Below are positions 535 to 45,555 of a stretch of DNA of 64,000 nt, piece after piece (positions within the stretch are counted from its first letter, which is position 1; every line of letters starts with the position of its first letter). A program made the translations under genes and the position numbers. Under the pieces are notes generated by a model. It searched no databases and was not told the DNA's origin. It saw nothing but the letters and a program-made list of their open reading frames with translations. The DNA is from Podarcis pityusensis (Eukaryota): assembly GCA_964106645.2 (NCBI GenBank), contig OZ067046.1; one strand, 5' to 3'.

Positions 535-561
535 GGACATGACTAAACGACTAAACAACAA
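535..561 (+). mobile_element. Bov-B tail remnant (~27 bp)
   Basis: GGACATGACTAAACGACTAAACAACAA matches the terminus of the other two Bov-B copies. Confidence 0.7.
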
Positions 562-4039: not shown

Positions 4040-4565
4040 TCAGAATATGATCACATTGGCTTACAATGAAGGATCCCATATGAATCCAAAGAAGGGCAAC
4101 AAGCAATGGTGGAGGTTGACAGTGTAGTCTAGGAAAAAAGGCTGAAGGAATTGTGTTTATTTAGCTCAGAGAAGAGGGAACTGAAGCAGGATTTATTAAG
4201 AATCTTCAAATATATAAATAGTTGCTTTAAAGAAGATAGAGATCAGTATTTCTTATCTACTGTGGTCAAGATTATAAATAATTATCTTAACAGATTAAGA
4301 AAAGCCTTCCCACTCTACCCCTGGAACATTAGATCACTAGATTTTCAATGGATGAAGTGGAATCTTCAGCACCTAAGGCCTTCACTATCTAATAGAAGCA
4401 AGTGATTAGATCTGTTTAGGTAAGTTCAATACTCAAGCAGGAAGAGTAACAGGATAGCCCCTTCAAAGGTTCTTATACTTGTATATTCAAGTAGCCTTCT
4501 GCCTCTGGCAGAGGTTTGAACTTGATGACTTATTATGTCTCTCCCAGATCTATGATTCTGTGATA
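4040..4565 (+). mobile_element. CR1 LINE 3' fragment (ancient)
   Basis: It translates to IQRRAT...RLKELCLFSSEKRELKQDLLRIFKYINSCFKEDRDQYF, similar to the CR1 ORF2 C-terminus (QRRAT...[21 protein letters not shown].VFKYL). It ends in a CR1 tail GGTTTGAACTTGATGAC...CTATGATTCTGTGAT. Confidence 0.85.
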
Positions 4566-7237
4566 TGAGGATTCTACTCTATAGTGAGGCAATCTCTTTC
4601 AAAAAAGAAGGGATTGTTCATTGTGCTTCTCCCCTTTATTTTCATATTGTTAGATCAAATTTCAAAGCAGCATTAAAACAATGTATTTTTATTCTTCATT
4701 CATCCTGCAGTTCTGATCAAAGGAGTAATTGAAGGGGAAAACCATTTAAGACTTTTAAAAATCACAATCCCTTTACTGTTTATAGATACATTAAGGTAAC
4801 AACTGCAAAAGGTTTGCTCTGATATACGTCCCTGACATACACAGAAAGCATTAGAACTTGTGAATTAGATGGTCCTGAATCAAGGCCACGACTAATAATG
4901 ATGAAGGGAAAGAAAGAAGAGTCCCCAGTCAAAAGGAAATTAAGTTAGAGCCCTTAATTTGTCAGTTTGCAATATGTGTCTGAGCATTTATATAGGATTA
5001 TGACCTCACAAATCAAGTGGCAGTGAAATATGCCTATTTTTTGGCTCCTGATGCCATGTAACTCCATTAGGTAATGCTTAAATATATAGCCTCTTAATCA
5101 TGGATGTTCATAATGAAAAATGCACACTCCCCATAAAAAGTTTATCATACAGCTGTGCCTGCCTATATATAGCACAGGTTTTTATTAGTTCATATAGTTA
5201 TGAAACTACTGAATTGTCCTTTGAGTCTCCTTTCTGAGATTCCAGATAATTAAGCTCAGGGAAAGGATCTCTTACTTTAAAGTTATTTTTGTTATTTCAC
5301 TGGCTTAGGAAAAAATGGTTACCATGCTCTCTAAGCATTAAAACAATAAAAAATAAAATAAAAAATAGAGCACGGTCTCCAGGAAGACTTGGTCTTAATA
5401 TCAATGTAACTGAAATTACTTAAACTATTGGCAGAATTGTAGTACCAGGGTTTCATTTAGCTTAGACAATACAGAGCTCATTAGATGTATTGTTGTAATT
5501 GTGAAGTTTCATCACTGTATATGTATGCACTTTTGCTAAAAATCTAGAGAATACAAGAGCACAGAAGACAAGCAGAAAGGTTTAGAGACTCCAGTGAATC
5601 TGGGGAGCAAATGTAGGTATGAATCCCTGTCATCAATATCATCTCCTCTTCAGCCAAGTAACATTTTTCAGAATGATACAGGTAGGCATAAACATTTATT
5701 CTGCGCTGCTGTCTCTGGTCATCCTAATTTTGTAGGTGTTTGATACACATCAAGCTGCATCTCAGAAAGCTATTTTTCCCCTCCTAGAAAGCAAATGAAG
5801 GCTAACTCCACAGATGTGTACACCGCAATTGTGGGCATCTATTGATGATGTCATTTGAGACAAATGACATGAAGGACACTCAGAAGGCACTTACACCAAC
5901 AGGGGTCACCATCAATTCCCTCATTTGCTGACTGCGCTGTAAATGCATCTCTTTTATTACAGTACTGATTTTCATCTCATCCCTGCCAACGGAGTGGAGC
6001 CCTGCAAACAGAACATTCTTGGCGAGCAGACTTTCCTCTTCTGTTTACATACCCAACTTGCAAGCAATGCCATTGGCCCACTCATAACATAAATACAAAA
6101 TGACTCTGTTAAATAATGTTAAAGGTCAGAAAAGCATATACAGAAAGAGGCTTCCAGTAAAGATAAGCAGCTTATGCCTGCTGCTTACCAACTCCCTCCT
6201 GTTTACAGCTCACCTTCTACAATCTGGAGGATCTAAGTCCAGGTATTGGGCTGTCGTGACTGCTTATATATTATAGAGATCTGCTTATCTGAAATGGTGA
6301 ACTATGCCAGATACATTTCCACAGGAGAGCCTCACTTTATCTCTGGCCCCTTACTTTTCCTCTTTGTCCCCATACGTAGACTGCAGGCACTGCTGTAGCA
6401 GATCTCTGCTACAAATGTGTTGCTATTCATTCCACCGCGGTACGATATTGTTCTGAATACATGCTAACCAGGGCTTTTTGGTCTGACATTGGTACAGAAA
6501 AGTGGCACCTCCTTTTTTGCTGCCAGTTTCTGCTGGCATCCATGGTGCTTTTATCAATATATGAGCACCAGCAGTTCATTTTTCCCATCCTCCTCCCAAA
6601 GCATTGTTGCTAACAGACAGGGCAAGTATCAGGACACAGCCAAGCTTGCTCTTTAAGGCCACAGTTCCATCTTCTGCCACCAGTGGCCTCCGAATTGGTG
6701 TACATGCCTATGGGAACCATTGTGCTCAGAGGGGAGATTTCCATAGGCATATGGCATATTGTTCATATGTCTCCTTTCCATACATTATGCTCAAAGCTGT
6801 TTGCAACAACAACAAATGATAGAAATAATAACAACAGAACAATTAGATCTGCAACAATATATCACAAGCCACAAAAGAAAAGCAGTTCCAAACAAGCTCC
6901 TTGTATCAAACAATGTGAAACGTAATCAATATAACACAACTGGAAAACTATTTCATTAAAAAAAATCCACCCACATTTAGGTGATGCAACAATTAATCTA
7001 TAATTGCAATATCTCAATGCAACAGGGGAATTTATAACGTGGCAATAGCACATCAGTGCACTGAATAACAACAATTCATCACCTAGATTTCATCAAATAC
7101 AGCTGAGCGTTAAAACAAGGGATAACGTAGGCAAAAAATAAATAAAGCAAAATTGAAAAGCAGCAGCAGCTTTAACAAAGTCCAAATTAACCTTTAAAAA
7201 TTGCAATAGGGATTGTAATAGGCACACAAACAATATA

Positions 7238-7476
7238 CAGTGGTACCTCGGGTTAAGTACTTAATTCATTCCGGAGGTCTGTTCTTAACCTGAAACTGTT
7301 CTTAACCTGAAGCACCACTTTAGCTAATGGGGCCTCCTGCTGCCTCGCTGCCGGAGCACGATTTCTGTTCTCATCCTGAAACGAAGTTCTTAACCTGAAG
7401 CACTATTTCGGGGTTAGCGGAGTCTGTAACCTGAAGTGTATGTAACCTGAAGCGTATGTAACCCGAGGTACCACTG
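7238..7476 (+). mobile_element. Tigger/pogo-type MITE (~240 bp)
   Basis: TIRs CAGTGGTACCTCGGGTTA / TAACCCGAGGTACCACTG, TA TSD, and internal TAACCTGAAG repeats. Confidence 0.93.
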
Positions 7477-8521
7477 TATGTAACTTCTTAGTAACAAATC
7501 CTGGTATAAATAATTGCTACTTATTTGCAAGCTTGCTTAGCTACAAGGCATAGATTCTCTCATTACATAATACATGTTCACATGGTTAGTAAACCACATG
7601 TCAGTACTCTATGAGAATCCTTCCAAAATGGTTGTTCATTTGCACAGTTTCGTTCTTATTTGTTTTTCCTTTTGATTTGTTACTTGGTTTCCTCCTATTT
7701 TCTTGTTTTCATTGTTTGCTTGTCTGCCTACTCTGTCAACCAGCCCAGCACTCTTTGATTACTTCTACAATGTTGTTGCTGGTGATGTCATCCTTTACTG
7801 CCATTCTACAGTTATCCTAACAGTGTTTTGATGATTTTGAGCTTATGCTGCTTTAAAGTCTGCATTACACACTTTTTATCCTACTATATATATATATAGA
7901 TAGATAGAATTTCTTGGGCACCCTTCACCATAAGGGCCAGGGCAGGTTACAACGTTATTCAAATCACTTAAAACAATTTACAGGATAAATATGTACATCT
8001 TCAGCATGAAACAGAAGCCATACAGTGAGAGTGCCAGACACATCTCTGTGGGGGAAGGAATCCCACTACTTAGAAGCTGTTGCAAATAATGTTGCAAATA
8101 ATGTCTCCCCACCCCTCTATGCTGATCTTAACACCCGACAGGCTTTAAACACTGTCATGCTGTGAACCGCCCTGAGATCTATGAATGAAGAGTGGCATAC
8201 AAATTTAATTAATGATAACGTCATCATCATCATCATTTATCTGCCTTTGTGCACAATTGTCAGAGCTTAAGCAAATTATGTGCATCATGTATGAAGATGG
8301 GAGGGGGCCATAAGTGCCCCCCCCAATGTATAATATCAGGATCTTTTTAAAAAAAGGAAAGTCAACATTTCTATCCATTTTAAAATTCAGATAAAATAAT
8401 TGGGGAAGCCAGGTTTTTAAGGGGGACATGGGATTTTCATGTTAACTAAAAGGTAGTATGGGTTGAGAAAAGGTTGAGAAACACTGGTTTAATTTGCAGC
8501 TTCAGTAAAGATCAACAAGTT

Positions 8522-8819
8522 AAGAATGGATGAATCCATCATTTTCAATTTTTCTCAGTTTTTATTTTTCCTATCTTAAGTTCCGTTCTCCACATTTCTA
8601 CAACAGATCTTTTTAAGCTCTTATGAAAATTCACCAGCATCTTAGTGCAAATTTATCCCTATACACGCTTTTGTGTCTTCAATTTTGTCTAACATGCATA
8701 TTTTCCCTAACAGAATGCATTTTTGTACATTATTTACACTGATGTATTAATTTTTACTGCCATTTTGTACCAACATATGCCCTTTTGTACGCATTACTTG
8801 GCTGCAGGATTGTATTGCC

Positions 8820-8850
<31 letters not shown>

Positions 8851-8961
8851 AAGTTTAAATTTTGAAGGGTGGCTATCCTTCAGTTTGCATCTTGTTTTGG
8901 AAACTGCAAATTAGATAGGTTCATCTTTAAATATGGAACACATCAAATTTCTCCCCATCCC
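8522..8961. mobile_element. Unclassified ~440-bp AT-rich non-autonomous DNA element
   Basis: Colinear with 12050-12503 and reverse-complementary to 22318-22760; partial relic at 52490-52740. It has GCATTTTTG repeats and ends ...AATTTCTCCCCATCCC. Confidence 0.6.
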
Positions 8962-9634
8962 AGAATTGTAGTAATCCAATAACATAGAGAGGCATCATCT
9001 CAAAGCATAGTCTATCACACAAAGATGATGCATGTGGCCCTTCAAATGTTGTTAGAGTACAGCTTCCATCAGCCACAGCTAGTATGGCCAATGGTCAGGG
9101 AGCTGCAGTCTGATAGCATGAATCCCCATCACTCATCCATCATTACAAACGTTTGTCCTGGAGGACTGACATCATAAGAGCAACAAGACAAAGCAAGACA
9201 AAGCAAAGAACAATAAACAGAAGTAGATCAGGCAGAAGCAGCTCACCAGGTAGGGTAGAGGCTCTCTGCTACCTTTCTGGGTCATTGCTGCTTACTGAGA
9301 GGGGTGAAGTGGTGGGGAGGTTGAAGAGGTGCAGCCACATCAGTGGGAGCACAGGATTGGCTCTGCCACTGTGTTTGCACTGCATGGACCTCCTTGTCAC
9401 CTCACTCCTCTCCGTCGCAATAAGCAACAGTGATCCCCCTCTGCCAGGATGCTAGTGTAGTGATTCTGCCCCACCCATCGAGTTGCTACTAAGAGCAGAT
9501 ACCTAATACAGATACCATTATGTGAAGAGTATATTAGAGATAGACCAGTAGAGATCTTGCAGGTGTGAAGTAGCACAGGTAGCATTACCATTTGAAAATG
9601 AACCACAGGGTTGTTATTATTCCAGTTTTAGATG

Positions 9635-9988
9635 GGTAAAGGTAAAGGGACCCCTGACCATTAGGTCCAGTTGTAGCCAACTATGGGGTTGCGGCGCTCA
9701 TCTCGCTTTATTGGCTGAGGGAGCTGGCGTACAGCTTCCGGGTCATGTGGCCAGCATGACTAAGTCGCTTCTGGCGAACCAGAGCAGCGCACGGAAACGC
9801 CGTTTACCTTCCCGCCGGGGCGGTACCTATTTATCTACTTGCACTTTGACGTGCTTTTGAACTGCTAGGTTGGCAGGAGCTGGGACCGAGCAACAGGAGC
9901 TCACCCCATTGCGGGGATTCGAACTGCCGACCTTCTGATCAGCAAGTCCTAGGCTCTGTGGTTTAACCCACAACGCCACCCGCATCCC
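9635..9988 (-). mobile_element. Sauria (Squam1/POM-type) SINE, full length
   Basis: The minus strand reads a tRNA-like head GGGATGCGGGTGGCGTTGTGGGTTAAACC...GTTCGAATCCCC, then the body, then an (ACCTTT)n tail. Confidence 0.95.
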
Positions 9989-10667
9989 TTTAATTTAGAT
10001 TAAATTAGATTAGTCCTTTTAGATAGGTAATCTACAACAAATATTTGGGTAACTCAATGAAACTAACTACTTGCCTATCTGTTCTGATGAGTTTTGGAAC
10101 ATTTGGCTGTGCATCGCTAAGACTATGAAAGCTTGAAAAAATACCACATACGGCGATAAACAAACTATTTTCTGGTTACTTCTTCTCAGGAAAAAAGCAT
10201 GCAAATCCCATCCCTGCCAATCTTGGGAGCCTAAGGGCAGATTAATTTACCATGACATGCTATAACAAAAATATTGTGCCTCCCAATGCAATGCTTTTTT
10301 GACAGATTGTCAATGAGTTAAGCCTAAGGAGTCAACACAATCTGCACAGGAGAGTTCTTACTTGTTTTACACTTTCTAAGCTTGCTATGTGGGCTTGCCA
10401 AACTCCCTCAATTAAAAAACACCAGTGAAAAATCCCTTTTAAAAACTGTCAGTTGTAGCTATGATCATCCCTTGTTAGACAAGATACCTTGCATAGAAAA
10501 GCTGTGCTCTGTAGCATCACAATAACCACCATCACCACAAAGAAACTAACCACCCAACGTTAAGTAAAAGTCCTCCATACTTATTGCATCTATATTTTAA
10601 CGTCCAATGTTATAAGCCAGCTTGTGACCTAGTAAGCTGCTCAGCCATACAAATTCTTGCAATCAGA

Positions 10668-10857
10668 GGAATACAGAAAGCTGCCTCATATTGAAACAGA
10701 CCATTGGTCTAAGCAGCTCAAACTGATGACAGCAGCTCTCCAAGGTTTCAGACAGAGGTCCTTCTCAGCCCTCCCTGAGGATGCCAGACTCCAAAGGTGG
10801 GGCATTTTGAATGCAAATCACTCTGTCGGTCTATCACTCAGCTACAGCGCTTCCCCC
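10668..10857 (-). mobile_element. tRNA-derived SINE, degenerate
   Basis: The reverse complement gives a GCTGTAGCTGAGTGATAGA head and a CAATGGTCTGTTTCAATATGAGGCAGCTTTCTGTATTCCT tail. Confidence 0.65.
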
Positions 10858-12049
10858 AAGTCCCTGCCCTGGCATTTAAATATTAGGTTTAGCAAGCCAG
10901 TACCCTATGTTCAGCATTTTTACAGATTTTAGGGATATCATGCTTTGCACAATACATCTCATAAAGTATCAGACTGAGCTATGTAGTCATGCAAGCTATT
11001 CTCATGGTGGGAGGAAATGATTAGTTGTAGCTGAACAGCCATTCTGAACTGAAACAGGGGAGGATGCACTAGTTATCATTACCTGTTAAGAAATATTATC
11101 AGTTGTGTTTTGAATGGAAGCCATACATAAGATGTGCTCCAAATCACAGAAACAGAAAGCATTTTCATGGGAGCTGATCTTTGTTTTGCACAATAAGGTC
11201 ACAGTTCAGCAAGACCTAATCTTTTCTTAATGGGCGGGGATTCAGTTCCATTCCTTTAATCTGAAAGATCGAAATGCATTGTTGTAGGTAGTGCCAGGGG
11301 AATGTAACTTTAAAGATAATTAGGTTCAATATCATGCTCTTCAATAGGAAAAAAAATTGTCATAATTCATAGTTAGAAAGGGATGGCATTGGTATCTCTA
11401 TTATTCACTTTGATAATAGCATTAATCAAGATGACCTCTCTACTTATTCATGTCGATGAAATTTGCAGTTCCATGGATACTCAATTGCAGTTTAGCATGA
11501 ATTAATGTACCTTTGCTGGAAAGCCTTTATAAGAAACAATATTATATGCTATTGTCAATAGCAGTGAAAGCAGCTGAGAGGTCCAGGAAAACCAACTGGG
11601 TTGCATCCCCTCCACAATTCTCAGGGTTAAGTCAACTATCAGGGCATCCAAGGGTGTTTGGGTCCTAAAACCAGGGTGGAAACCAGTGTTGAAAGTATTT
11701 CATTATGTCTTCATACACTTTTTGTTCCATGAGGGATAAATAATCAATTATACTGTCTATTCATTAGAGATAGGCAAGAATATCCCAGCTCATAATGGAT
11801 TAATTTGGAAATGTTCTCCCCACTCCAAGTTGGGAAGAACTACAGCTAATTTTCAAAGCCAATTTGATTATTTAATCTATAAAACTATATCATTGCAAAG
11901 TACATGTGATATTCTGCATAGCCAATATAGATGAAGGAAGTTGTTATACTTCCTTGTTAAAAATTTCTGGTGTATCTCTCAGACTGTTGATTTTTGCATC
12001 CAACCTCTAGAGAAATGGATAAATGAAATGTGCATCTGGAACTACAGAT

Positions 12050-15110: not shown

Positions 15111-15119
15111 TCCAGTGTA

Positions 15120-15357
15120 CAGTGGTACCTCGGGTTAAGTACTTAATTCGTTCCGGAGGTCAGTTCTTAACCTGAAACTGTTAACCTGAAGCACCATTTT
15201 AGCTAATGGGGCCTCCCGCTGCCACTGCGCCACAGAGCACAATTTCTGTTCTCATCCTGAAGCAAAGTTCTTAACCTGAAGCACTATTTCTAGGTTAGCG
15301 GAGTCTGTAACCTGAAGTGTCTGTAACTTGAAGTGTATGTAACCTGAGGTACCACTG
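15120..15357 (+). mobile_element. Tigger/pogo-type MITE, same family
   Basis: Same TIRs, TA TSD, colinear with 7238-7476. Confidence 0.93.
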
Positions 15358-16504
15358 TATAATTTTTTATGAAATTAATAATAATAAATTGATTTATGAA
15401 TATGGAATATTGCCTCTATTGTAGGGATTTTATCTCCGTCTTGGGCAGAATTTCTAATTTAGATAAAGACTACCCATATCACTAATCTCAGATGTGTGGA
15501 CCTTAGATACAAACACTCATTATATGGTGAACTTCTTGACATTTAGCAGAGTGGGATAGCAAACAGAATCAAATTCAATAATGATGGAAAAGTGTAGGGT
15601 GGGTGTTATAGATGAAGTATGAGGCAGTACACAAATCCTCCGCCCCAAGCTTTCTTTCCAGCCTGGTGGTACATGTATGCATTATGAAGAAATTCCTGTG
15701 GTTTATACCTCATTATGCAGCTATGGAATATTTCACAACATTTTAAGCTGCAAGCCCTGCAAAGCAGCAGCTTTGAATCATGACCACTAGCTACTGATTA
15801 GCCCATTTGGCTTGTCACCACCTAAGGCATTTGTGAGGTGAAATGTTTCTTGAACTATGTAAACAAATAACTGTAATTTCCATTTAATTGAATGTTGACC
15901 TTGGACTGCAGTTATAATTGACTTCATGACTAGATGATGCCTAGGCTGGCAACTGGCACAAACATGCTGTAAGAGGGTGTGTGAACTTTGTTTATTATAG
16001 GTTCACTCACATTTGTACCTAGTGCACTGCAGTAAGTCCTATATAGCTTCTTCTTTTGCCTACAATACAATTATCAAAGGCAACGTAATTTACAAGGAAA
16101 AACTATTAGAAGACCTGGAAGCATATGAAATACAAATGAAAAAGATCCTCACTTGAAATAGATGCCAGCCCCTGCTACAAGCATCACCTAAGGGTTTTTT
16201 AAAAATAAAAAATACATAACATTCAGTGACTATCTAGAACCATTATTATCATGATAAGAAAAGGATACTAATTGACAGTCAATATGGTGCTCATGGGTGT
16301 CTGCTCATGCAGTCTCCCTGCAGTCCTCCTCCCATTTATCTGCAAAATCTGCTCCAGAAGAGACTCTGAAGTAAATTGGAGTGCATGTATGGGAGAGAAG
16401 AGAAACTGAAAGTCCTGTTTCATAGCACTAGCAGATTTCTGTTGCACGGGTGGATGGTCATCACTGGATGTCACCCACTGGTTTAAACGTATATCAATAT
16501 TAAA

Positions 16505-16881
16505 GGGACGCGGGTGGCGCTGTGGTCTAAACCACTGAACCTCTTGGGCTTGCTGATCGGAAGGTCGGCAGTTCGAATCACCGCAACAGGGTGAGCTCCC
16601 GTTGCTCTGTCCCAGCTCCTGCCAACCTAGCAGTTTGAAAGCATGCCAGTGCAAGTAGATAAATAGATACCACTGCGGCAGGAAGGTAAATCGCATTTCC
16701 ATGCGCTCTGGCACTTGTCACGGTCCTCCTTGCACCAGTAGCAGTTTAGTCATGCTGGCCATATGACCCGGAAAGCTGTATGTGGACAAACGCCGGCTCC
16801 CTTGGCCTGAAAGCGAGATAAGCGCCACAACCCCATAGTCGCCTTTGACTGGGCTTAACCGTCCAGGGGTCCTTTACCTTT
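16505..16881 (+). mobile_element. Sauria SINE, full length, different subfamily in the 3' half
   Basis: The head GGGACGCGGGTGGCGCTGTGG has B box GTTCGAATC, and the tail is CCTTTACCTTT. A 14-bp TSD TATATCAATATTAA sits at 16490-16503 and 16888-16901. Confidence 0.95.
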
Positions 16882-19755: not shown

Positions 19756-20329
19756 TAAATAGGTTAGATTATTCTGAAACTATATAGTGTGGCTCTTTAG
19801 ACTTGGGAAGTCTACGTATGGTTATGGACAACACATGCACAAGTTTATGCTAGACTATGATACTTTATAAACTGCTTTGAGGGTTTTTGTCATTTTTTCC
19901 AATCAAGCAGTATGCAAATTTTATGAAATAAATAAATAAATGCTTGCTGAATGAGTTTAGACGTCAACTTTGTGCCAACTTCAGCACAGCTTCTCCAGCA
20001 TGCTCACTATTTTCTTCTCTATTTAAATGTAAAACAAGAGGAGAGAACTACAGTATATTGTACCAACAACCCTATGTAGAACCTGCTGTTAAGGTTTGTA
20101 ACAATTGAAACACTGATTGTTTTGACTTGATCTTTTTAGTAAGCACATATATTTATTTTTGTCATTATTCAGCTTACTAGAGGACACCAATTTTCTCTTT
20201 CACAGATTGCACCATTTTTTTTGTCTCTTGCATTTTGCATATTTTCTCGGATTACTATTCACATGTATGATCTATGCAGTCCCTTAAAATCATCATGCTC
20301 TTTTATCCATGTTCAGCCATAATGAATTA

Positions 20330-20600
20330 GGCTCCATATGCACTGTACATTTAAAGCAATATCAAACTACTTTAAACAGTCATGGCTTCCCCTGAAGAAT
20401 CCTGGGGGCTATAGTTTTTGCAGCTGCTGAGAGTTGTTAGGAGACCTCATTCCCCCTCACGGAGCTTCAGTTCCCAGTGTTTCCTGGAAAGAGGGACTGA
20501 TTGTTAAACTACTCTGGTTATCACAGCTCTGTGAGGGGAATGGGGTCACCTAACAACTCTCAGCACCCTTAACAAACTACACAAACAACAAATTGGGATG
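20330..20600. mobile_element. Long-palindrome non-autonomous DNA element
   Basis: Arms 20410-20466 and 20525-20581 are inverted complements (TGCTGAGAGTTGTTAGG.GACC.CATTCCCC.TCAC.GAGCT). A related relic lies near 51480-51625. Confidence 0.75.
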
Positions 20601-21574
20601 ATTGGAACCAATAACTTGCACTACAGAAAGTTCTGGCAGAGAAAGAAATTCATCTTACCCTGCCCAAAACCTGGACTGGAGTGCAGCATATGGAACAGAT
20701 TCCACAATGAACTCTCAGCCTGCTAGGCTTCTCTGGGCCCACTCCAAAGCAGATGGCAGATATTGCCACCTGCTCTGCATGCTGGAGTCAGTAGGGCCAA
20801 ACTAGACAATGCAAGGAATGTGCGATCGTATCGCACATGTCTTGTTTAAATTAAACAAACAATAGAAGGAAAGTATTGAGAAAAGGAAAATCGGGAGAAG
20901 GGGGTTGAGTCGCAGCATGGTCCTGCCGAACATTCCCCTCAGCTGTTATTCGCCATGAAAGGGAAGGTGCCATCAGTGCCACGGGCTTCTTTCCTCTAGG
21001 AACGAACATCTCCTTTGCTTTACAACCCTTCCTTTTCACTGCATTCCTCATAGCCACCTTCCCGCAAAGAGCTGCTAGCTTTTACGCTAGATCATACATT
21101 TCTCAAATCATCATCTCAGAATGGGGGATGCCTAGCGTAGCCCAAGACAGATATTTGGGTGTACGCATACCCTTCAACATTCTGCAAGAAAACAGGGACA
21201 TTCTATGCTTTTAGAATGGAATGTTCCTATTTTTTCATGAGGATGAATTTTGGAGAGTGTGGTATGAGGCCTCTGATATGCAAGGGGAAAGTGATGTTGC
21301 TGTATGCTTGGTGGTCCAGAGGACTTGGATAAAAGCCTCATATGGCCTGATGTGGCCCATGGGACCACATGACTGTGAAAGCCCTTTCTACTTCAAACTG
21401 CTGAACATCTTCAGAAGATCCCTTGGACTATGCTAGTCATTCACCTCTAATCTGCTCCTAGGGCTCTGACTGTTTGCCTTAGTACCTAGGAAGCAGGCAC
21501 AGTACATGTCTCTGGCCTACATGTCTGAAAGAGAATTACTTCCAAGGCAGAAGCAGAAAGGATGGGGCAGCTAT

Positions 21575-21870
21575 GATATTATTTATTTCTTGAAAAGATC
21601 TGGATGACTCACTCTTCGTCAATACCAGGGCAAAGTCCAGAACTCAACATTAAACAGCCCACCAGATCATAAAATAAGCAACAGTGCATACTAATATATT
21701 TAAGCAGCCAAACACATAGAACAGGTTAAACAATCATCATCTTACAAAACTTTAAATACCTAGGCAAATAAAAAAAAAGTCTTAATCTGGAGCTAGGATA
21801 ATAATAATGTTGATGCCAATTGTACCTGTAAAGGGGAAGTTCCAGAGATGGGGCTTCACCACCAAAAGTG
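21575..21870 (-). mobile_element. L2 3' end, degenerate
   Basis: ATTTATTT tail, AATACCTAGGCAAATAAAAAAAAAGTCTT, GGAAGTTCCAGAGATGGGGC. Confidence 0.5.
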
Positions 21871-22317
21871 CTCTTCTTAACAGTTGTATTTTCTTGTAGT
21901 GAAAACCATCAAGTGAAACACTCTACAAACCATTCCTTAGGTGAATTATGAAATGCATGCAGACTTTTCTGTGGCATCTCTCAGATTAAGTTATTACAAG
22001 CCTTTGCCTCCATCTCCTTCAGGTCTTGTAAAGCTGCAATTTGGACACAGAAAATACAGATGATGCAAAGCACAGGCTACTGAGGGAACACTTACTAGCA
22101 TGCAATTTCAGAAAATGTAATTCCTGCCAATAAAATTTGAGGTTAAAAAGAGCATATTGGCAGGTGCGGGAGGGTCTCTTGAGATCTGATGCAGAGGAAG
22201 TTTTATCTAAAGGAGGTGCAGCATGGTGGAGTTAGTGCCCTTCAGACATTGTTATTATATTGAGAAATCCCATAGATGATGCAGGATTAATACAATCATC
22301 TTTCAGACAGCGAAATA

Positions 22318-22760
22318 GAGGTGGGGCAGTAATTCAACTCAGTGTACCTTTAAAGGTGAACTTTTCTAATTCACACTTTCTGAAACAATATGTGAACTGA
22401 AACACAGCTGTCCTTCAAAAATAGACATTACTCCAAATTTGGCAATTTAGTTTTCCAAACAAACATTATGACCAAAAATGTATATAGTTGGGTGAAATGT
22501 GCATAAAAATGCATAAGTGAAAATAACATAAAAAATATTAAGGCAGATTGCTTGCAGAAATGTGTATTATAGTCAAAACTGCATAGGAAAAATATGTTTT
22601 TAAATGAGAAATTAGTGCTAAAATGCTGACAAATTCTCATGAGTATTTTTTTTAAAAAAATAATAATAATCACAAATTCTTACAAAAATGTGAAGAACTG
22701 AAAATAAGATTGGAAAAAAGAGAAACAGAGCCCAAAACTGAGAGTTTCATCCAGTCCTAC
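22318..22760. mobile_element. Same AT-rich element family, opposite orientation
   Basis: Reverse complement of 8522-8961 (AAAATGC repeats, CTTAAGATTGGAAAA-like end). Confidence 0.6.
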
Positions 22761-23357
22761 TACTGTGACAGTCTTCAGAAGAGATATGAAGTGTAATCTA
22801 TGCATCTTTACTTGGAAGCAAGTCCCACTCTGTTCAATGGAGCTTACTCTAAATAAGTGTGAAGAGGATGACAGGCTGAAAATCTTTCACCTTTTCCTCA
22901 CTGCTCTGGATATTCAGGGCAAAGGTGTATAAAGGCTGAGTATCATTATTTTTTAAGATAGAAAACAGATGTAAAGTGCCCCAAGATTATCATACCAGAT
23001 ATATTTTAATAACATATGCATAATCAAAACAACTTCTGTTGGCCACAACTGTACAGGAATTCTAACGCTGATGTGAGCTCTTGTCAACTTTCTGAAGGCT
23101 CCCTTTCTGCAAGGTCTCTTTCACATTTACCTGATTTAGAACCTCCGGTTAGAAAGAGAAAGTAAAAATAAACAAAGCAAGCCCACAAAGCTGTTAGAGG
23201 AATTCAGAGCAGCAGACCAAGCTTACATAACAGCTACAGCTGAGATGATAGAAATGACTCTTGCTATATCACATTATCTTTCCATAAAGTCTAATCCCAG
23301 GTGACACCGCTCTGCCAAGGTTAAAGCAATTCACCTGGCATGTCTACTTTAGCCTTT

Positions 23358-23384
23358 ATTTGCATCTGCTATGCAAATGAGTCA
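23358..23384. promoter_or_regulatory. Inverted POU octamer pair plus AP-1 site (candidate enhancer core)
   Basis: ATTTGCAT-CTGCT-ATGCAAAT overlapping TGAGTCA, in repeat-free sequence. Confidence 0.4.
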
Positions 23385-23815
23385 GCAAACGTCCAGCGAG
23401 CTCATTCACAAGGCTTGGTTACCAGAGCAAAAACAAAATTGATTGCCATCATTAACATTGAATGTTTTTAAAATATTTGAAAATGTAACATTCAGTGTAG
23501 GTTACATAAGCTCTCAACAGCTACATAAAATATCCATGGTTATACCAGAGGTAGCCGACGATTACTAGACTATAAATCCCATTGTCCTGGACCAAGGACC
23601 ATGCTGGCTGGGGCTGATGGACATTGTAGTTCAACAGCATCTGGAGAGCAATATGCTGATTACTCCTGGAATAGACAATGCATACCATCTTTATTTTCAC
23701 TATGTAAAACTGGCATCTTTTTCAAAATGGTTAAATCTGCTTTTATTTCACAACAACAACTACCATTGCAACTAGAAAGCAATTCCACATTTTCTTCATA
23801 TTCTGCATAAGTATA

Positions 23816-24054
23816 CAGTGGTACCTTGGTTCTTGAACTTAATCCATTCCGGAAGTCCGTTCAACTCCTGAAACCGTTCGAAAACCAAGGCGCGGCTTCC
23901 GATTGGCTGCAGGCGCTTCCTGCACTCAAGTGGAAGCCACGTCGGACATTCAGCTTCTAAAAACATTCGAAAACTGGAACACCTATTTCTGGGTTTTCGG
24001 CGTGGGAGCTGATTTGTTCGGCAACTAAGCCATTCGAGAACCAAGGTTCCACTG
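23816..24054 (+). mobile_element. Tigger/pogo-type MITE, sister family
   Basis: TIRs CAGTGGTACCTTGGTTCTTGAA / TTCGAGAACCAAGGTTCCACTG, TA TSD, different interior. Confidence 0.9.
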
Positions 24055-24180
24055 TAATCATTATAATCATAATTTCATCAGATAACACATGAAGTGGGCA
24101 AGTATGAACTGGGCCATGTTTGGCATCTTTTATACATGGCCTAGTTCTTGCTCATGGTATGAGTTCCATGTAATAATCCT

Positions 24181-24371
24181 GGGGTGCATGGTGTTAGGGG
24201 AAGGGTAGTACATCTGCTGGGGGCCACGTCATGCTCCTTCTGGGTTAGTTTGTCCACTTTTCGTCCCCACCCTGCACTCAGCTCTTATCTGTGGCTCCTA
24301 GAAGCAGTCAGCATGCGACAGTGGCCACACCTTAGGAATGGCTTCAACTGACTGGCTAAACCAGGTGAGGG
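24181..24371 (+). ncRNA. Candidate HDV-like ribozyme relic
   Basis: Nested P1/P2/P3 pairings in HDV order, GG after P1, and GGCTAA before the 3' strand of P2 (see findings). Confidence 0.45.
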
Positions 24372-24725
24372 TAGCCGATGGGTCTTAAACCCTCAGTGAG
24401 TTAGGGGCTTCCCCTGCATGAGAAGACAAGCTGCCATGGATTGCGCGGACAAGACCAATAGTGGGTCCAACAGTCAAGCTGGTGGTTTCTGTACATGCTG
24501 TAGATGGAAGTGAGAGACAGATGGAGCTCACCCACTTGGGAAGGTGGCCCATGTAAGAGAATGAAAGCTCTGATTCTAAACCTCTGCTGCCTTGTGATAT
24601 ATCCTCAGGAGAAGAAAAAGCTAAGGAGTAAACCCTGCACAAATCCGGAGTGGAGTCCCTAAGATGGTTGGACGGCACCTTGTGCACCTCCTTCTGGCAA
24701 CTCCTGCAGTCTAGCTAGTGCCAAA
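24181..24725 (+). mobile_element. 5' region of an RTE/Vingi-like non-LTR retroelement (no ORF retained)
   Basis: A GC-richer block with motifs I recall from vertebrate RTE-type 5' UTRs (GGCTAAACCAGGTGAGGGTAGCC, CTCTGATTCTAAACCTCTGCTGCCTTG, GGAGTAAACCCT.CACAAATCCGGAGTGGAGTCCCTAAG). The clade assignment is from memory. Confidence 0.6.
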
Positions 24726-24732
24726 TATAATA

Positions 24733-24763
<31 letters not shown>

Positions 24764-24765
24764 TA
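24726..24765. repeat. (TAA)n microsatellite / retroelement tail
   Basis: Direct reading. It lies between the RTE-like block and an antisense L2 tail remnant (CTGCCCATCTGGCTGGGTTT). Confidence 0.9.
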
Positions 24766-27700
24766 CACTGCCCATCTGGCTGGGTTTAATCAAACATTAA
24801 AAACTTCCCTAAACATATATTACTCTGCTTTCCTTTGGACCACAACAGCAAGTCTGATGGGGCAGGGCATTGTCTTGTCATCTGATCAGCCCAGGACCTC
24901 CATACACACAGTCCAGGCTTGTGCCCTGAGGAGGTCACTTTGGTGCTGCTAATGCAGTGGTTTGACTTGATCCCCATAGGTGCACTCTGTTGTTTCTCAG
25001 TGCATACGAGAGCCAACAGGAGAATCTTGGTAATGTGAGGTTTGCTGCCTGGACAAGGTTGTGTGGAAGGGACAGTTTCAATCAGCCAGCACCTCTAACT
25101 GATTGCTGTATCCAAATCTGTCCACATTCTGATAGCAGTTGCCCTTTGCAAATGCGAACCGTTCCCTGTGGAGATGCTGAATAGGTGTGGAAATGCCACC
25201 TCACCCGTAAACAGGTTGTATCATGTATGCAAATAGCAGGATTATTGCTACAGTCATTGCCTTGAGAAAGATGAGCTATGCCAATCATTCAGTGGTTCCT
25301 AGTGCCTAATGAAACGCAACCATTTTTATAGCTTGTGCTCGGTTGTTAGCCTTCACTGTTTTAAATTCTGTGCTTTTCTTCTGAGTGGAGCAAGAGGTTA
25401 AATACTGCAAATTGTAGAAGGGCCCGGAGATGTGAAGGCTTGGTTGAATAACAACGCCTGTTAAACGGAACTTACTAATAAATTGCTTTGGCTTCTTAGG
25501 CATGTAGATAGGAAACACATTTGTGTTTGCTAGGAATGGAGGTGGTATGTGGAGGAGGTGTGAGAAATTAAAATGCAGGACAAACATTATTCACTTGTCC
25601 TCTCATTCACTGTTCTCTCTCTGGTGCTGAAATCTGTGTGATATACAAATATTATGTTTACCCATGATAATGTAAGAGATGAATAAATAAAATGGCTGCA
25701 TTCAAAAAACAAATTATAAATGTGTGCTATTATGATCAGGGAGAGAAAGAGGGGATATGTATTATAGAGACCCCCAGGAAACAAATATATGATTATGTAC
25801 ACTATTATCGCTGCAGGGGGAATCACTTTCAATGAGAGCTAAGATACCCAGGGTCAGGTGTGGGGAAGTTTAACCCTTCCCTCCAGGCTGCAATTGTTTT
25901 CATTTTCCCCGTAGAATTCAATGGGAACAATTGAGAACTGAACCCATCTCTATCTGCACAGCCTTCCTCTTCCTCTTCATAATTCTGCCCTTGGGCTTGT
26001 TTGTGAGGCACATTAAATTTGTGGTACAGAAACAACAAACAGTCCTGTGGTACCTTCAAGACTGAATAGAGACAATGCTTTTCTATCCTACTACAGGCGC
26101 TGATGAGCTTCACAGTGCTAAGATTATTGTTTTATGACAAGTTAGTTCTGCTGTAAGGGCCACAGTGCTTATTTTGCACACATTTAAACTCAGCTTAATT
26201 GCTGCAGACTGTACTTTTTACATTTCATTTCCATTTAACTTTTGGAACCAATAGCTCTCCAAATGTTGCTGAACTCCAACTGCCCCCATCTCCATCCAGT
26301 ATGTCCAATGCTCAGAGATTATGGGAGCTATAATACAGGTTTTCCACGTTTGCTTTACACTCATGTATGTATATACCTACCAATTAAGGATTACATTTCC
26401 TGCTTCTGGTGAACTCTAGTCCATGAAATTTGTTGATCTTTCAGGTGCCACAAGAATCTGGTTGTTGTTTTTTAAGGGGAGGTAGATGGGTCACTGCAGT
26501 AGACAAATGAAGCTACCCTCTCAAAATAGTTAAGGTGCAAAAAAATTGGTTTTTACTCTCACTGGAGCGGCATATATAAAGATGGAACCTGGGAATGGCA
26601 TAACAAAACCATACATAAATTTAATTTAGCTTCTGTTCCCCTTGGGAGGTAGAGACTAGTAGGTTTAACTTTGTGACCTTTTTGTTCATGCTGAGTAAAT
26701 TATATCAGAAATAGATCTCTTTTGTCTTAACCCATGTAGAATAAAATAGTTGTGATAGCATATACTGTGATTTATGGACTGTATTGGCTATGTTGAGCCT
26801 TTGTGAAAAGACTCCACGTGACCCCTTGTTTGGAAACAGAAACTCATTACTTAGGAAAATACCATTTCAAGGATGATGACGGGCTGTGGTCAGGACTTAA
26901 TTTGGAAAGAACTATTTACACACCTCCAATGTCTACTGATGATGTTGTCTCCCACACAGTGGTATATGTGAATTTCTATATTTTATATTATTGTTTGCCA
27001 CCCTAATGGGCAATTTCTGCAGAGAGATCACATAGCACAAGTGATCATAGTGGGCCCTTCTATATCCAGAGTGCTTATTTTGCACAGAGCTTCCTCCTCC
27101 TCGTTATAGCTCTCTGTTCATTTGTGCCTACAAACTGGTTGCCCGGTGACTAATGAATCACATTTAATCTTCTCCCTACTGTTGCAATCCTTTATTTAAA
27201 ATGTTTTCAAGTGAAACTACTTTTGCAAGCAAAGCAAATTATCAAATTGCATACATGTTTGGAAATTTGTGTTATTCATTCCTGTTGAAGAATTGAGATT
27301 GTCAGGCTTTAAAATCAGGTGCTTCGCTTCTCCTTTTGTCAGAAAGGTAGGACACTCAAATTCTAATCTAACCATAATATATACTAGTTGAAGACTCCTG
27401 TTGGAGAGCAAATGCCCACATTGGACACACCTGATGTGAAAGCAGTTTTTCAATCACAGTACAGTGTCATAACTGGAGATTTTAATGGCATCTTATGTAA
27501 AGCTGAATAATGTGCCATAAATGTGAGAACCTAACACATGATCTCAGATTAGGAAGAAGCCAAGCAGAATATGGTCACTTCCCCATTTTCACTGAGGAAT
27601 TTATTGCTGCTTGAGGTCAGAGAGTTAAATGTAACTATATACATTAAATAGGTTGGATGGTTTTATGGTGCCATTTTGAATTGCGGATTTTAACTCAGTG

Positions 27701-28761
27701 AGTTATAGTTTATTTGTTATGTTGCAGATTGTGAATCACCACCAACAGTGGGCGTTTTCCTGTTTGAACAGTCACAAGGAAAGTGTAGAGTTGCTTTTTA
27801 ATTAAAAATAATACACTACTAAAACAGTATTAATGCATGGAATAAACCATAGCTAGGATTATAAATGTGGATAATCTTTCCTCCTCCCCAGTTTATATTT
27901 ATATCAGTAATTTAGTGAGATTTCATAGTAATAGCAATAAGCAGTAACAAAAATGAAGCTGAAGAGTTATAGGGAAAATGACTCCAAGGAATACGTACTC
28001 AGAAGCAAGCCTTACTGTATTGAATGGGATTTACCCCCAAGTAAGTGTTCGTGGGATTGCAGCCTGAGACAATGGAACAAGTTGTCATGACTAACTTTTC
28101 ATCTTGCTTTCAGTGGGACCTAGCTGCAACTTAAACCTCATATACCTGGAATGAAGTCTTGATGAATTCTGAGTAGACATGGTTAGGATTGTGCTTTTAA
28201 TCAGGCCCCAGCCCATAGAGAAGGGATGACACACTGGTTCCAACTGGGAGTGGCTTGGCCGCTGGGTTGGAACAGTACCAATAGCCTCCTGGCTGCAATA
28301 TTGCTTCCACTTCTACTCTTGGTCAGTGGCAACAGCTCTGCTGTCAATATGCCATCGCTGCAGTTCCATCCACTGAGGAAGCCACTCCCAGAGGTTCTGC
28401 TATAAGGCTCCCCATAAGCATCTGGTTGTCCACAGTGAGAGCAGGATGCTGGACCTCCATTTGGCCTGATACAGCCTGATCTCTTCTAATGTTCTTGGCA
28501 AAGTGGGAATTCAAACCTGGGTCTCTCCGGTTCTTGTCTGGTTATCTGACCAATGTGCATTGAGCAATAATCTGAATAAATATATTTGTGGTTTTATGCC
28601 ATTTCCATTTTATCTTACTTAACACAGTTAGGAAATTTACTTAACACAGTTTTGGAATGAATCGAAGTAGTTGTGGCTGTGAACTAGCTGTATTAAGAGA
28701 AAAGGAAAGTCCTGAAGATTTTAATTGACCAAGAAAAGTCACTTTTGAACGAAGTCAACTG

Positions 28762-28958
28762 AAACATAAGGAGCTGTCTTATGTCAGAGCTTTGATTCAT
28801 CTAACACACCAAAGGCAGTATCTACTCTGACAGCCAGTGGCACTTCAAGGTCTCAAGAGAATACTTTCCAGCCTTTCAACATTAATTCCTTGTCATCCAA
28901 ATATGGCAGTAATTGAATCTGAGACCTTATAGCTGCAATGCTGCTGAGCTATCGCCCT
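28762..28958 (-). mobile_element. tRNA-derived SINE, highly degenerate
   Basis: The reverse complement gives GGGCGATAGCTCAGCA...GGTCTCAGATTCAAT as head and ...GACAGCTCCTTATGTTTC as tail. Confidence 0.55.
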
Positions 28959-30193
28959 TTACAATGCAATATGCCAGCGACGGGGAACCTGTGACCCTCT
29001 AGATGGGTTCTAAATGGGATGGGAACCAGTGGCCCTCTTCTGCACTCCCCATAATTCCTGTTTGTTAAAAATTGGTCAATGATTGTTGAGAAACCTATAT
29101 GAAACCACTGTGCTTAACAAAAAACAATTCAAAGCTCTTCAGTGCTCTGAAGACAACATTTTGGACAGCCTCATTTCTTGTAGAGAGATGTTAAACCATA
29201 TTGTAAAAAAAACCAAAAACCAGAATGACCAAGCATTCTGTGGCTTTTGGGGCCCCCTGATTTAACTCAGGGGGTCTTACTGACATCCTACTTCAATGTG
29301 CAAGTGAAAGTTCCCTGAACCATCCTAATTCACTTTGCTATTTACCCTCCCCCCCATGCACAAACATGCAAATGGTGAGAAAGCTAATGCACAGCCCTAA
29401 ATGGTATCACTAGGATATAAGTACAAGTCACTTTAATTCATTCTGAGCCCCTGAATGCAGTCATTCAACCGAAGCCAGTGGATGAGCTAAATGTTAATTT
29501 TGGGACTTGAATGGTGCATACTAAATGTACACTGAAAGATGGAGATGTGCATGCATAGACATTCATCTTTTTCTGTATGCTTATCTTTAACACCATGACC
29601 ACATACACCAAATGACTTTAGCCATTATTTTATGCACATGGATATTATGTTAACTCCATATTGTTCAGTATATTCTACACTTTTTGTTCAGTGAAATAAA
29701 ATGCACAGTGATTTGTAGGATCAAGTCCCAAATTCAGAACACTATTCACAATATATATCCTTATATGAATTGCTTGCTAGCTATATTGTTATGCTGCTAT
29801 TACAGAATAATGCTCACTGCTATTTCAATGAAGACCTTTTAAATAAGAAAAAAGAAAAATATCATATGTATGTTAGAACATATTTTTCAGAATGCATTGT
29901 TAGGGCGGCTCCTTTATAATGGCCACATCTAAACTCACTTTTTCTTGGCAGTGAGATGTCTTTTTCTCTAAGATTAATAGTTAATTCATACTGCACTCAG
30001 TGACCTGCTGAGATTTTGGAGCAGTACTGAAAAATACAGACTAATTTCTGAACTGCTTTACTAGTATAGCTATATTTAATATAAATGCAAGGGAAAATAT
30101 TTTGCCTTGGTGTTTCCCTGATTTCCATGCCAAAAGAAAGAAGAAGGAAAAGAATATATGGATCCAAAATCTATGCAGCTTGGAATCCAGATA

Positions 30194-30419
30194 CAGTGGT
30201 ACCTCGGGTTAAGTACTTAATTCGTTCTGGAGGTCCGTTCTTAACCTGAAACTGTTCTTAACCTGAAGCACCACTTTAGCTAATGGGGCCTCCCACTGCC
30301 ACCACGCCATCGGAGCACAATTTCTGTTGTCATCCTGAAGCAAAGTTCTTAACCCGAGGTACTATTTCTGGGTTAGCGGAGTCTGTAACCTGATGCGTAT
30401 GTAACTTGAGGTACCATTG
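30194..30419 (+). mobile_element. Tigger/pogo-type MITE, same family
   Basis: Same TIRs and TA TSD. Confidence 0.93.
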
Positions 30420-41293: not shown

Positions 41294-41686
41294 CCGTATT
41301 TTTTGCCCTATAGGACGCACTTTTCCCCCTCCAAAAATGAAGGGGAAATGTGTGTGCATCTTATGGGGCGAATGCAGGCTTTCGCTGAAGCCTGGAGAGC
41401 GAGAGGGGTCGGTGCGGAGAGTTGCCTGCATGCTGAAGCCTGGGCGCGCTGAGCTCAGCGCGCCCAGGCTTCACGCAACTCTCTGCAAAGCACGGGAGCC
41501 CGGTGCTGGGCTGCCGCGGCTTGCAGAGAGTTGCCTGTTCTGGGGGCTGGGGTCGGGGGAAGCTCGGGCTTCCCCCACCCCAGCCCCGTGCCTGGGGGGG
41601 AGAATAATATTTTTTCCCTTTATTTCCACCCCAAAAAACTAGGTGCGCCTTATGTGACGGTGCGTCCTATAGGGCGAAAAATACAG
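41294..41686. mobile_element. Tc1/mariner-superfamily (pogo/Tc2-like) MITE, GC-rich and young
   Basis: TIRs CCGTATTTTTTGCCCTATAGGACGCAC / GTGCGTCCTATAGGGCGAAAAATACAG, TA TSD, and many intact CpGs. Confidence 0.9.
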
Positions 41687-41690
41687 TATA

Positions 41691-42300
41691 TGCTAGTGGC
41701 AGGGCCGGATTTAGGTTTGATGAGGCCCTAAGCTACTGAAGGTAATGCGGCCCTATATATGTCCAGCTGTCCTTTGTCAACAACAAATCGTTGCTGTTTT
41801 TTGTGTTGAATATATGCTATATGGTAATTTATGGACCTAATAGGTATCTAAAGCCATTTGCACATAACAAAATATGTATTTTATCAAAGTACATCCAGAG
41901 AGTAGGGTCCTTAGCTATAGCTTGTTTAGCTTATATGTAAATCCAGCACTGGGTAGTGGCCAAAATTGTGGGAACCTTTTGGAAAAAGTGTATTTCCAAG
42001 GTTTGATGGCTCATAACACCTGATTGGCTCTCTAAACACTCATGTTCATTGGCTACATACAAGTGAAGGAAAACAACTGCATATCTACCTAAGCAAGTTG
42101 TCCTTCCTTTTTCTGCTTATTTGGCTATAACTTTTGATAGAATACAGGTAACTGAATTTTGTTGCATTACATTCTTCGTTAAATTATCTTTCCATTGATA
42201 TATAATTTTATGGTATTACTCCAAAAAAGTGGTGTTATAAGCCATCAAACCTCAGAAATACACTTTTTCCAAAAGTTTTCCACAATTTTGGCTGCTAGTG
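41691..42300. mobile_element. Tc1-like MITE with ~70-bp TIRs, left TIR interrupted
   Basis: The left TIR (41691-41699 plus 41960-42020) is the inverted complement of 42231-42300. TA flanks both ends. Confidence 0.88.
41700..41951. mobile_element. hAT-type MITE nested in the Tc1-like TIR
   Basis: TIRs CAGGGCCGGATTTA / TAAATCCAGCACTG and an 8-bp TSD GCTAGTGG / GGTAGTGG. Confidence 0.88.
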
Positions 42301-44113: not shown

Positions 44114-44217
44114 CAGAGGTAGAGCACCTGCTCTGCATGCAGTAAATCCCAGTTTCAATGCTGTGTTAGCTGGATCAGTGGTCTAATTGAGTTTGATGCA
44201 GCTTCCATGCCTCCTAG
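44111..44217 (+). mobile_element. tRNA(Ala)-derived SINE segment fused to the 5S copy
   Basis: GCTCAGAGGTAGAGCACCTGCTCTGCATGCAGTAAATCCCAGTTTCAAT is followed directly by the family tail GGATCAGTGGTCTAATTGAG...GCAGCTTCCATGCCTCCTA. The middle of the SINE body is absent. Confidence 0.75.
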
Positions 44218-44493
44218 ATATGTTGTCCTTTTGCTACTATTGCCACCACAGTTCCTGGGAAATGGGCAATTCAATTCTAGAGAAGATAGCACCCCCAAGC
44301 AGAAGAAATTGAGTTCCATGTTGGAGGAAGAAGTCAGCTGCTTATGACAGTAACTTCTGGTGAGGGAGAAGGCCATTCCCTCCTCCTGCCTTATTCTTAT
44401 ATTTGCAAATTTGCTAAAGCCTTGGCTAGCAAATATTTGGCTAATTGAAGAGAAACACAAAGCTGTCACATCACAAGCAGCAACTTCCTGCAT

Positions 44494-45555
44494 GTTGTTG
44501 TTGTTTAGTCGTTTAGTCGTGTCTGACTTTTCGTGACCCCATGGACCAGAGCACGCCAGGCACTCCTGTCTTCCACTGCCTCCCCGCAGTTTGGTCAAAC
44601 TCATGTTGGTAGCTTCGAGAACACTATCCAAACACCTCGTCCTCTGTCGTCCCCTTCTCCTTGTGCCCTCAATCTTTCCCAGCATCACTGTCTTTTCCAG
44701 GGAGTCTTCTCTTCTCATGAGGTTGCCAAAGTATTGGAGCCTCAGCTTCACGATCTGTCCTTCCAGTGAGCACTCAGGGCTGATTTCCTTCAGAATGGAT
44801 AGGTTTGATCTTCTTGCAGTCCATGGGACTCTCAAGAGTCTCCTCCAGCACCATAATTCAAAAGCATCCATTCTTCAGCGATCAGCCTTCTCTTGGTCCA
44901 GCTCTCACTTCCATACATCACTACTGGGAAAACCATAGCTTTCACTATACGGACCTTTGTCGGCAAGGTGATGTCTCTGCTTTTTAAGATGCTGTCTAGG
45001 TTTGTCATTACGTTTCTCCCAAGAAGCAGGTGTCTTTTAATTTCGTGACTGCTGTCACCATCTGCAGTGATCATGGAACCCAAGAAAGTAAAATCTCTCA
45101 CTGCCTCCATTTCTTCCCCTTCTATTTGCCAGGAAGTGATGGGACCAGTGGCCGTGATCTTAGTTTTTTTGATGTTGAGCTTCAGACCATATTTTGTGCT
45201 CTCCTCTTTCACCCTCATTAAAAGGTTCTTTAATTCCTCCTCACTTTCTGCCAACAAGGTTGTGTCATCTGCATATCTGAGGTTGTTGATATTTCTTCCG
45301 GCAATCTTAATTCTGGCTTGGGATTCATCCAGTCTAGCCTTTCACATGATGAATTCTGCATATCAGTTAAATAAGCAGGGAGACAATATACAGCCTTGCT
45401 GTGCCCCTTTCCCAATTTTGAACCAATCAGTTGTTCCATATCCAGTTCTAACTGTAGCTTCTTGTCCCACATAGAGATTACTCAGGAGACAGATGAGATG
45501 ATCAGGCACTCCCATTTCTTTAAGAACTTGCCATAGTTTGCTGTGGTTGACACAG
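44494..45555 (-). mobile_element. Bov-B (RTE clade) LINE, 5'-truncated copy
   Basis: The minus strand encodes RT/C-terminal motifs NNLRYADDTTL, LKLNIKKTK, FTFLGSMITADGDSSHEIKRHLLLGR, MVFPVVMYGSESWT and DAFELWCWRRLLRVPWTARRSNLSILKEI. It has the Bov-B 3' end GACTAAACGACTAAAC(AAC)n. A 9-bp TSD TTCCTGCAT sits at 44485-44493 and 45556-45564. An in-frame stop (~45364) and a frameshift (~44895) make it non-functional. Confidence 0.97.

Follow-up and report, generated by a model that had tools for sequence, protein, structure and literature searches.

RTE, Ingi and R2 elements are reported to have ribozymes at their 5′ ends and to give rise to short bipartite elements that keep that end, and short bipartite elements are reported for Vingi as well (PMC5786205). 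Retroelement ribozymes resembling that of hepatitis delta virus (HDV) release the element RNA from cotranscripts (PMC6765202, PMC3414825); HDV-like ribozymes use a cytosine as general acid (PMC13635239) and require a reverse wobble between a U and a G in loop L3 (PMC3774820, PMC6326823), and cleavage is faster when J1/2 is structured and P2 extended (PMC4908430). The RNArobo descriptors for HDV-like ribozymes set L3 at 7 to 8 nt, J1/2 at no more than 51 nt and the motif CNRA (PMC4870747).

The window studied here is the whole 64-kb stretch of Podarcis pityusensis DNA, and its positions 24181 to 24371 are probably the 5′ end of a decayed RTE-derived copy whose family has an HDV-type pseudoknot with an additional helix in L3 and a predicted self-cutting site at G24181. 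The family has the helix order of the retroelement HDV-like ribozymes, with G1 at the first base of the element, a P1 of 6 to 7 bp, a 3-bp P3 and a 2-bp P1.1, and it also has in common with them U20 and G25, the CNRA motif, a long J1/2 with a P1.2 helix and an extended P2 (PMC4908430, PMC3774820). Such ribozymes head R2, R4, RTE, Baggins and L1Tc/Ingi elements, and drz-Agam-2-1 with its large J1/2 domain is an especially close case. Unlike all of these, the family in the window has a 6-bp hairpin behind G25 that brings L3 to 28 nt, an A at the position of C24 and a 1-nt bulge at the base of P2.

All parts of the fold lie on the plus strand, and every motif listed by the first-pass annotation of this DNA is present at the position given there. 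The 5′ strand of P1 (24181-24187) begins with G24181, where cutting is predicted and the copies of the family start, and is followed by a J1/2 domain of 94 nt (24188-24281) that a predicted P1.2 helix, pairing 24190-94 to 24274-78, closes. The 5′ strand of P2 (24282-24292) forms 10 bp and, beyond a 1-nt bulge, the pair U24292-A24360; the junction from P2 to P3 needs this pair and one bulged C in the window copy, unlike in the marine relatives described below, where it is direct. P3 (24293-24295) makes three of three Watson-Crick pairs with 24324-26 and shows no listed family difference. The L3 core (24296-24303) consists of U20, C21 and C22 (the P1.1 bases), U23, A, G25 and a 2-nt linker, and leads into the extra hairpin (24304-24322), which has 6 bp (24304-09 with 24317-22), a 7-nt loop and a 1-nt linker at 24323, so that L3 of the family reads U-C-C-U-A-G, two A, the hairpin and one G before P3. 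The 3′ strands of P3 (24324-26) and P1 (24327-33) take up 24324-24333 in our pair table; the P1.1 partner (24334-35), J1.1/4 and a short P4 (24339-43 with 24350-54) take up 24334-24355; and J4/2 with the predicted catalytic C24356 and the 3′ strand of P2 take up 24356-24371. T24296 corresponds to U20, G24301 to G25, and CTAA at 24356-59 to CNRA. L3 of the window copy is 28 nt long and has A at the C24 position, where published descriptors have C, and so departs from the canonical rule TYYHCG(N)Y of 7 to 8 nt; judged by its sequence, the feature is a variant, not a canonical member, of the HDV-like ribozymes, with activity predicted.

The first-pass annotation had read a P1 of 6 bp and a P3 of 4 bp. 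Both helices stand, with changed lengths: that register was rejected in favor of the canonical 7-bp P1 (24181-87 with 24327-33) and 3-bp P3 (24293-95 with 24324-26) because the family has T at 24187, which pairs with A24327. For P1.1 its C24297 and C24298 are correct, and their partners move from GG at 24335-36 to 24335 and 24334. The claimed L3 of about 28 nt with its own hairpin proved to be a family trait, the hairpin being longer than noted at 6 bp, and the P4 called decayed does contain a mismatch in the window copy, while family letters restore a short stem of 4 to 5 bp (24339-43/24350-54).

Taken alone, the window copy could be explained by chance, as the GC-rich head of a repeat, such as an internal promoter, in which no RNA structure is under selection. 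The fold of 24170-24400 is no better than that of shuffled sequences (z = +0.40), its minimum-energy structure ties the 5′ strand of P1 to the end of J1/2, and the J1/2 fold is weak (z = +0.81). A strict HDV descriptor rejects the copy, and a loose descriptor that accepts it finds 33 + 31 = 64 cores on the two strands, that is, in 128 kb of window. No HDV-type model was among the 12 Rfam matches to E 10 in 20000-30000 of the window, and the 64-kb window contains no second copy of the element. With the evidence from a single copy this weak, significance rests on the family and the relatives. J1/2 also repeats the strands of P1, with a second GGTGT after P1 (24190-24194) and a second P1-like partner before P2 (24273-24279), so that P1 and P1.2 could swap partners, as they do in the lowest-energy fold of the window copy.

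The family set consisted of contigs from 4 of 23 listed DNA runs aligned on 24090-24480 at 80% likeness (3,295, 4,253, 3,961 and 4,931 contigs per run), with three organism codes in addition to that of the best-matching one. Family letters are marginal shares, depth-weighted and skewed toward copies with a likeness of 80% or more to the window copy, and are not a measure of column-wise covariation. The family is plainly very abundant, with peak depths of 40,742 to 656,247 across the runs, depth not being a copy number. Depth is 10 to 150 up to 24187 and then 520 to 11,242 at 24188, and at 24190 loose ends occur in all four runs, where 39, 67, 75 and 58 contigs continue into unlike AT-rich flanks (agreement 0.49 to 0.50) that lie ahead of four G and the T at 24187. 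Since the unlike flanks directly precede the four G, copies that reach the 5′ end start at the G of P1, the predicted cut site, as the first-pass annotation had expected. Depth at the 5′ end is about 1 to 2% of the peak, and many contigs stop earlier, which may reflect truncation, subfamilies or alignment loss.

The window copy has three mismatches in P1, P1.1 and P4 and one in the L3 hairpin (pair table), and family letters repair all four: the loose-end consensus of all four runs has T at 24187, T makes up 98 to 99% of family depth at 24306 in the hairpin (A in the window copy), G makes up 46 to 54% at 24334 in P1.1 (also A in the window copy) and 91 to 94% at 24351 in P4. Both pairs of P1.1 are present in no more than roughly half of the family depth. 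With these letters, all five helices P1, P2, P3, P1.1 and P4 are completed in HDV order. Further family letters within helices are C in 95 to 98% at 24286 and 93 to 95% at 24288 (P2), 85 to 86% at 24332 (P1), 27 to 34% at 24339 and 33 to 36% at 24353 (P4) and 34 to 40% at 24322, the last having, with A in 24 to 28% at 24323, the pattern of CpG decay. The restoration of Watson-Crick pairs proposed in the first-pass annotation was therefore seen in P1, P2, P1.1, P4 and the L3 hairpin. All seven T-to-C differences inside helices fall on G·T wobbles, which have 9 such T, and the 6 A-T pairs receive none of them (P = 0.006, hypergeometric test); the three majority differences among them (24286, 24288 and 24332) alone give P = 0.18, and the four minority ones (24322, 24333, 24339 and 24353, at 27 to 49%) lie at CpG-type sites and are read as CpG decay. 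No majority difference disrupts a core pair, six of them falling within J1/2 (24188-24281), and one minority letter, A in 23 to 27% at 24317, breaks a pair of the L3 hairpin. Among the differences listed there is none at U20 (24296), G25 (24301) or 24356-59, and none in the L3 core (24296-24303) at the 15% threshold; the candidate catalytic C at 24356, the equivalent of C75, is accordingly kept.

In run X2, 40 contigs with loose ends at 24337 give a consensus that likewise contains the 3′ arm of the L3 hairpin. No hairpin-less subfamily was seen: the core had no indel difference, and none of the 15 joints listed out of 106 was a clean removal. Loose ends at 24355 (40 to 62 contigs per run) mark a subfamily in which the P4 region is about 5 nt shorter and the candidate catalytic C is kept; in this subfamily (24337-24358) another C follows the predicted catalytic C. 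The window copy itself is probably inactive, having lost the P1.1 C-G pair and having a P1 mismatch, many wobbles and a competing fold.

Relatives were fetched by a 25-nt motif of the untranslated region (UTR) about 210 nt downstream of the core. It gave 13 loci, 12 from metagenomes and 1 from a genome, and the fold played no part in their selection. Five of the 13 pass the strict HDV descriptor, all on the element strand and with nothing else in 99 kb, and in these the predicted catalytic C lies 98 to 111 nt upstream of the UTR motif. Applied to 20 shuffles of the window (2.56 Mb), the same descriptor found 9 strict cores, all of them devoid of an L3 hairpin; this control rate favors the descriptor, which was written after the loci had been seen. 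One passing locus (L001) has a canonical, hairpin-free L3 of 7 nt. The four hairpin-bearing matches represent only two families, one with a 25-nt L3 and a 6-bp hairpin (L004, L005 and L007, under one assembly prefix) and one with a 23-nt L3 and a 5-bp hairpin (L012). A long, hairpin-bearing L3 thus recurs with other sequence in the relatives; the earlier annotation had suggested searching with descriptors that allow an L3 insertion. The hairpins of the relatives have no sequence in common with that in the window, so that three unrelated intact sequences occupy one place, with linkers to G25 and to P3 of 3 and 1 nt in the relatives and of 2 and 1 nt in the window copy. The relatives form P3 as GCC/GGC and the window copy forms it as GGC/GCC; for P1.1, the relatives with a hairpin have GC/GC where the window family and L001 have CC/GG. 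The relatives also have a P1 of 6 bp and no P4.

The repair of all four mismatches, the start at the G of P1 and five strict matches with compensatory changes in P3 and P1.1 are hard to reconcile with a chance reading of a repeat head, which we consider largely refuted and very improbable. A promoter in the same place may coexist with a ribozyme, as in L1Tc (PMC3383444). We conclude that the HDV-type fold with its added helix in L3 is real and a feature of the whole family, ribozyme activity being predicted from the sequence.

Eight of the 13 loci fail the strict descriptor. Judged by eye, five of these (L003, L008, L009, L010 and L013) are without the 5′ part and three (L002, L006 and L011) have a core with a broken P3 or L3 position, L011 and L002 appearing as decayed hairpin versions. 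The core pattern gave no match in genome G001, and in viral contigs two patterns had no match and a protein query no confirmed one; the sole core-pattern match there (L014), phage-like coding DNA without a P1, was dropped as chance. In L004, about 837-1455 is an internally deleted copy of an RNase H-bearing element in which an intact ribozyme fold and UTR are joined to the last codons of the open reading frame (ORF), as judged by eye, and a (GAA)n tail. L013 lies on a 2-Mb contig of a bacterium-labelled genome and has an animal-type UTR and LINE-like reverse transcriptase (RT) fragments; it is likely host DNA in the bin.

If the family consensus is catalytic, the ribozyme would release the element RNA from read-through transcripts of the host by cutting at G24181, with C24356 acting as the general acid as in HDV, and the cut RNA would then be copied in trans by an RTE protein. 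Since the L3 hairpin lies 3′ of G25, it would be directed away from the active site, and it could act as a stabilizing helix at the periphery by stacking under P3. In HDV the last bases of L3 are extruded and U27 is dispensable, and an insertion at this place would leave the active site intact. The family appears to have a structured J1/2 and an extended P2, if the predicted helices are taken as a guide; 8-bp P1.2 helices are also predicted in J1/2 of L001 and L007.

The fold might also be real and noncatalytic, the L3 insertion having disabled the active site and the structure serving as a shield against 5′ exonucleases or as a platform for binding or translation start. L3 is part of the catalytic core (PMC4908430), the usual C beside G25 is replaced by A in the window copy and in L012, and a stable ribozyme fold is described as conferring cap-like protection in R2-based templates (PMC13708176). 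However, the copies start exactly at the predicted cut G, and U20, G25, P1.1 and CNRA, which catalysis demands and mere folding does not, have been retained by the window family as well as by both marine families that bear a hairpin, which makes this reading unlikely.

A neutral, removable expansion without a role of its own is a more serious possibility for the hairpin, to which we give somewhat less than an even chance; it is compatible with the predicted catalytic step and competes only with the stabilizing role. The RTE-like family of L001 and L006 has the core with a canonical, hairpin-free L3 of 7 nt, and the J1/2 and P4 parts of R2 ribozymes are free to vary (PMC3774820). Against neutrality, three unrelated and fully paired hairpins on linkers of 2 to 3 nt and 1 nt suggest that at least the pairing is selected. 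The hairpin is no simple replacement for P4, since the window family has both and L001 neither.

As for the element behind this ribozyme candidate, the region downstream agrees with a retroelement 5′ end, as first annotated: the family copies start at G24181 and the UTR that follows is RTE-like. Positions 24520-24940 (plus strand) are homologous to the UTR that precedes the ORF of L006 and L010, and blastn gives 70 to 72% identity over 190 nt to the UTRs of L001, L006 and L010 (E down to 7e-18), the alignments agreeing. This UTR is split at about 24723-24815 by an insert of about 90 bp. The insert contains (ATA)13, has an almost perfectly duplicated AT-rich 7-mer at its flanks and resembles the 3′ tail of a second retroelement, in minus-strand orientation. 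The presumed 3′ end of a short element lies in 24941-25022 (plus strand), its boundary being uncertain as the possible target-site duplication at 25023-28 matches in only 5 of 6 positions. A C-terminal protein profile found nothing in the 3′ part, and tblastn with 83 full-length proteins gave no match better than E 0.11 to a coding remnant in 24000-25200. The element is likely a short, nonautonomous, RTE-derived retroelement, as its sequence indicates, and may instead be a longer element broken at its 3′ end. Bipartite RTE elements (RTESINE1/2, WALLSI3 and MAR4_MD) and R2 SIDEs are similarly short and noncoding and keep the LINE 5′ end and UTR (PMC5786205), and R2 SIDEs keep a working ribozyme (PMC3414825). 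A tRNA-derived SINE was rejected, the head being taken up by the pseudoknot and ARAGORN finding no tRNA gene in the window, where a decayed tRNA-like head could be missed.

The ORF family that goes with the L006/L010-type UTR encodes about 1,040 aa with an endonuclease, an RT and a zinc-finger-like C-terminal motif, and none of the 120 members listed has RNase H; we take it to be RTE-like from this architecture. The ORF relatives of L007 have about 1,200 to 1,300 aa, mostly with RNase H, are about 25% identical to the RTE-like set and are presumably Ingi-like. The RTE-like family is the closer of the two to the RT fragment found elsewhere in the window. Vingi, which unlike Ingi is without RNase H (PMC13708176), found no support as the driver of the element, since it is the RTE-like family that gives the longer UTR match. 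With RTE-like L001, L006 and L010 on one side and Ingi-like L007 on the other, the ribozyme and part of the UTR are common to two distant clades; Kojima (2018) describes a conserved RTE 5′ UTR domain that is shared with Ingi-3_AC (PMC5786205).

Minimal theta-type HDV-like ribozymes are also without P4, and the marine loci L001, L004, L005, L007 and L012 resemble them, with 5 nt from P1.1 to the predicted catalytic C. In contrast to the theta type, these loci head animal retroelements, have a J1/2 of more than 100 nt and mostly carry the L3 hairpin, and the window family keeps a short P4. Descriptors that fix L3 at 7 to 8 nt and J1/2 at no more than 51 nt cannot find this build. Rfam gave no match to E 1 for any of the 8 loci searched out of 14, L001 among them, and a miss of even a canonical L3 indicates that its models miss this clan generally.

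We found no description of an L3 hairpin in the literature text covered, and an earlier depiction is possible (Ruminski 2011, Webb 2009, Webb and Luptak 2011, Weinberg 2015). The accessible parts of PMC3774820, PMC6326823, PMC13635239, PMC4035085, PMC10879173, PMC8256844 and the CPEB3 preprint contain no mention of one. The window family may be listed under an existing Repbase name. We see about an even chance that the loci represent an undescribed six-helix subclass of HDV-like ribozymes that extends from marine invertebrates to reptiles, whose 5′ module of ribozyme and UTR domain moved between RTE and RNase H-bearing Ingi-like elements and which descriptors and Rfam have missed. If so, many animal retroelement ribozymes would have been missed by searches. 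A natural helix in L3 would widen the known HDV fold, as far as the available text describes it, since L3 is part of the active site and is fixed at 7 to 8 nt in search patterns, and it would offer ribozyme design a new place to attach domains. A ribozyme would further account for the exactness of the 5′ ends in short elements derived from RTE, a class with UTRs that are being engineered to insert genes (PMC13708176).

The remainder of the window is noncoding animal DNA of about 40% GC with many short repeats, and the 15 ORFs scanned revealed no host gene. The RT fragment (44155-45474, minus strand) is frameshifted, matches Pfam RVT_1 at E 2e-10 and is about 30% identical to RTE-like proteins; we assume it to be BovB-like. 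A repeat family of about 245 bp and about 90% identity occurs at 7236-7479, 15118-15360, 30192-30409 and 59011-59257, and a more diverged piece of it lies at 23810-23879, 300 bp upstream of the element. Another family of about 320 to 390 bp and 77 to 88% identity (2915-3232, 9635-10000 and 16493-16881) is presumably Sauria-SINE-like. Inverted-repeat stretches at 20425-20565, 41434-41587, 41959-42292 and 57625-57774 are possibly small DNA transposons, the first also having a subthreshold match to a microRNA model, and 55464-55563 is an exact 50-bp tandem duplication.
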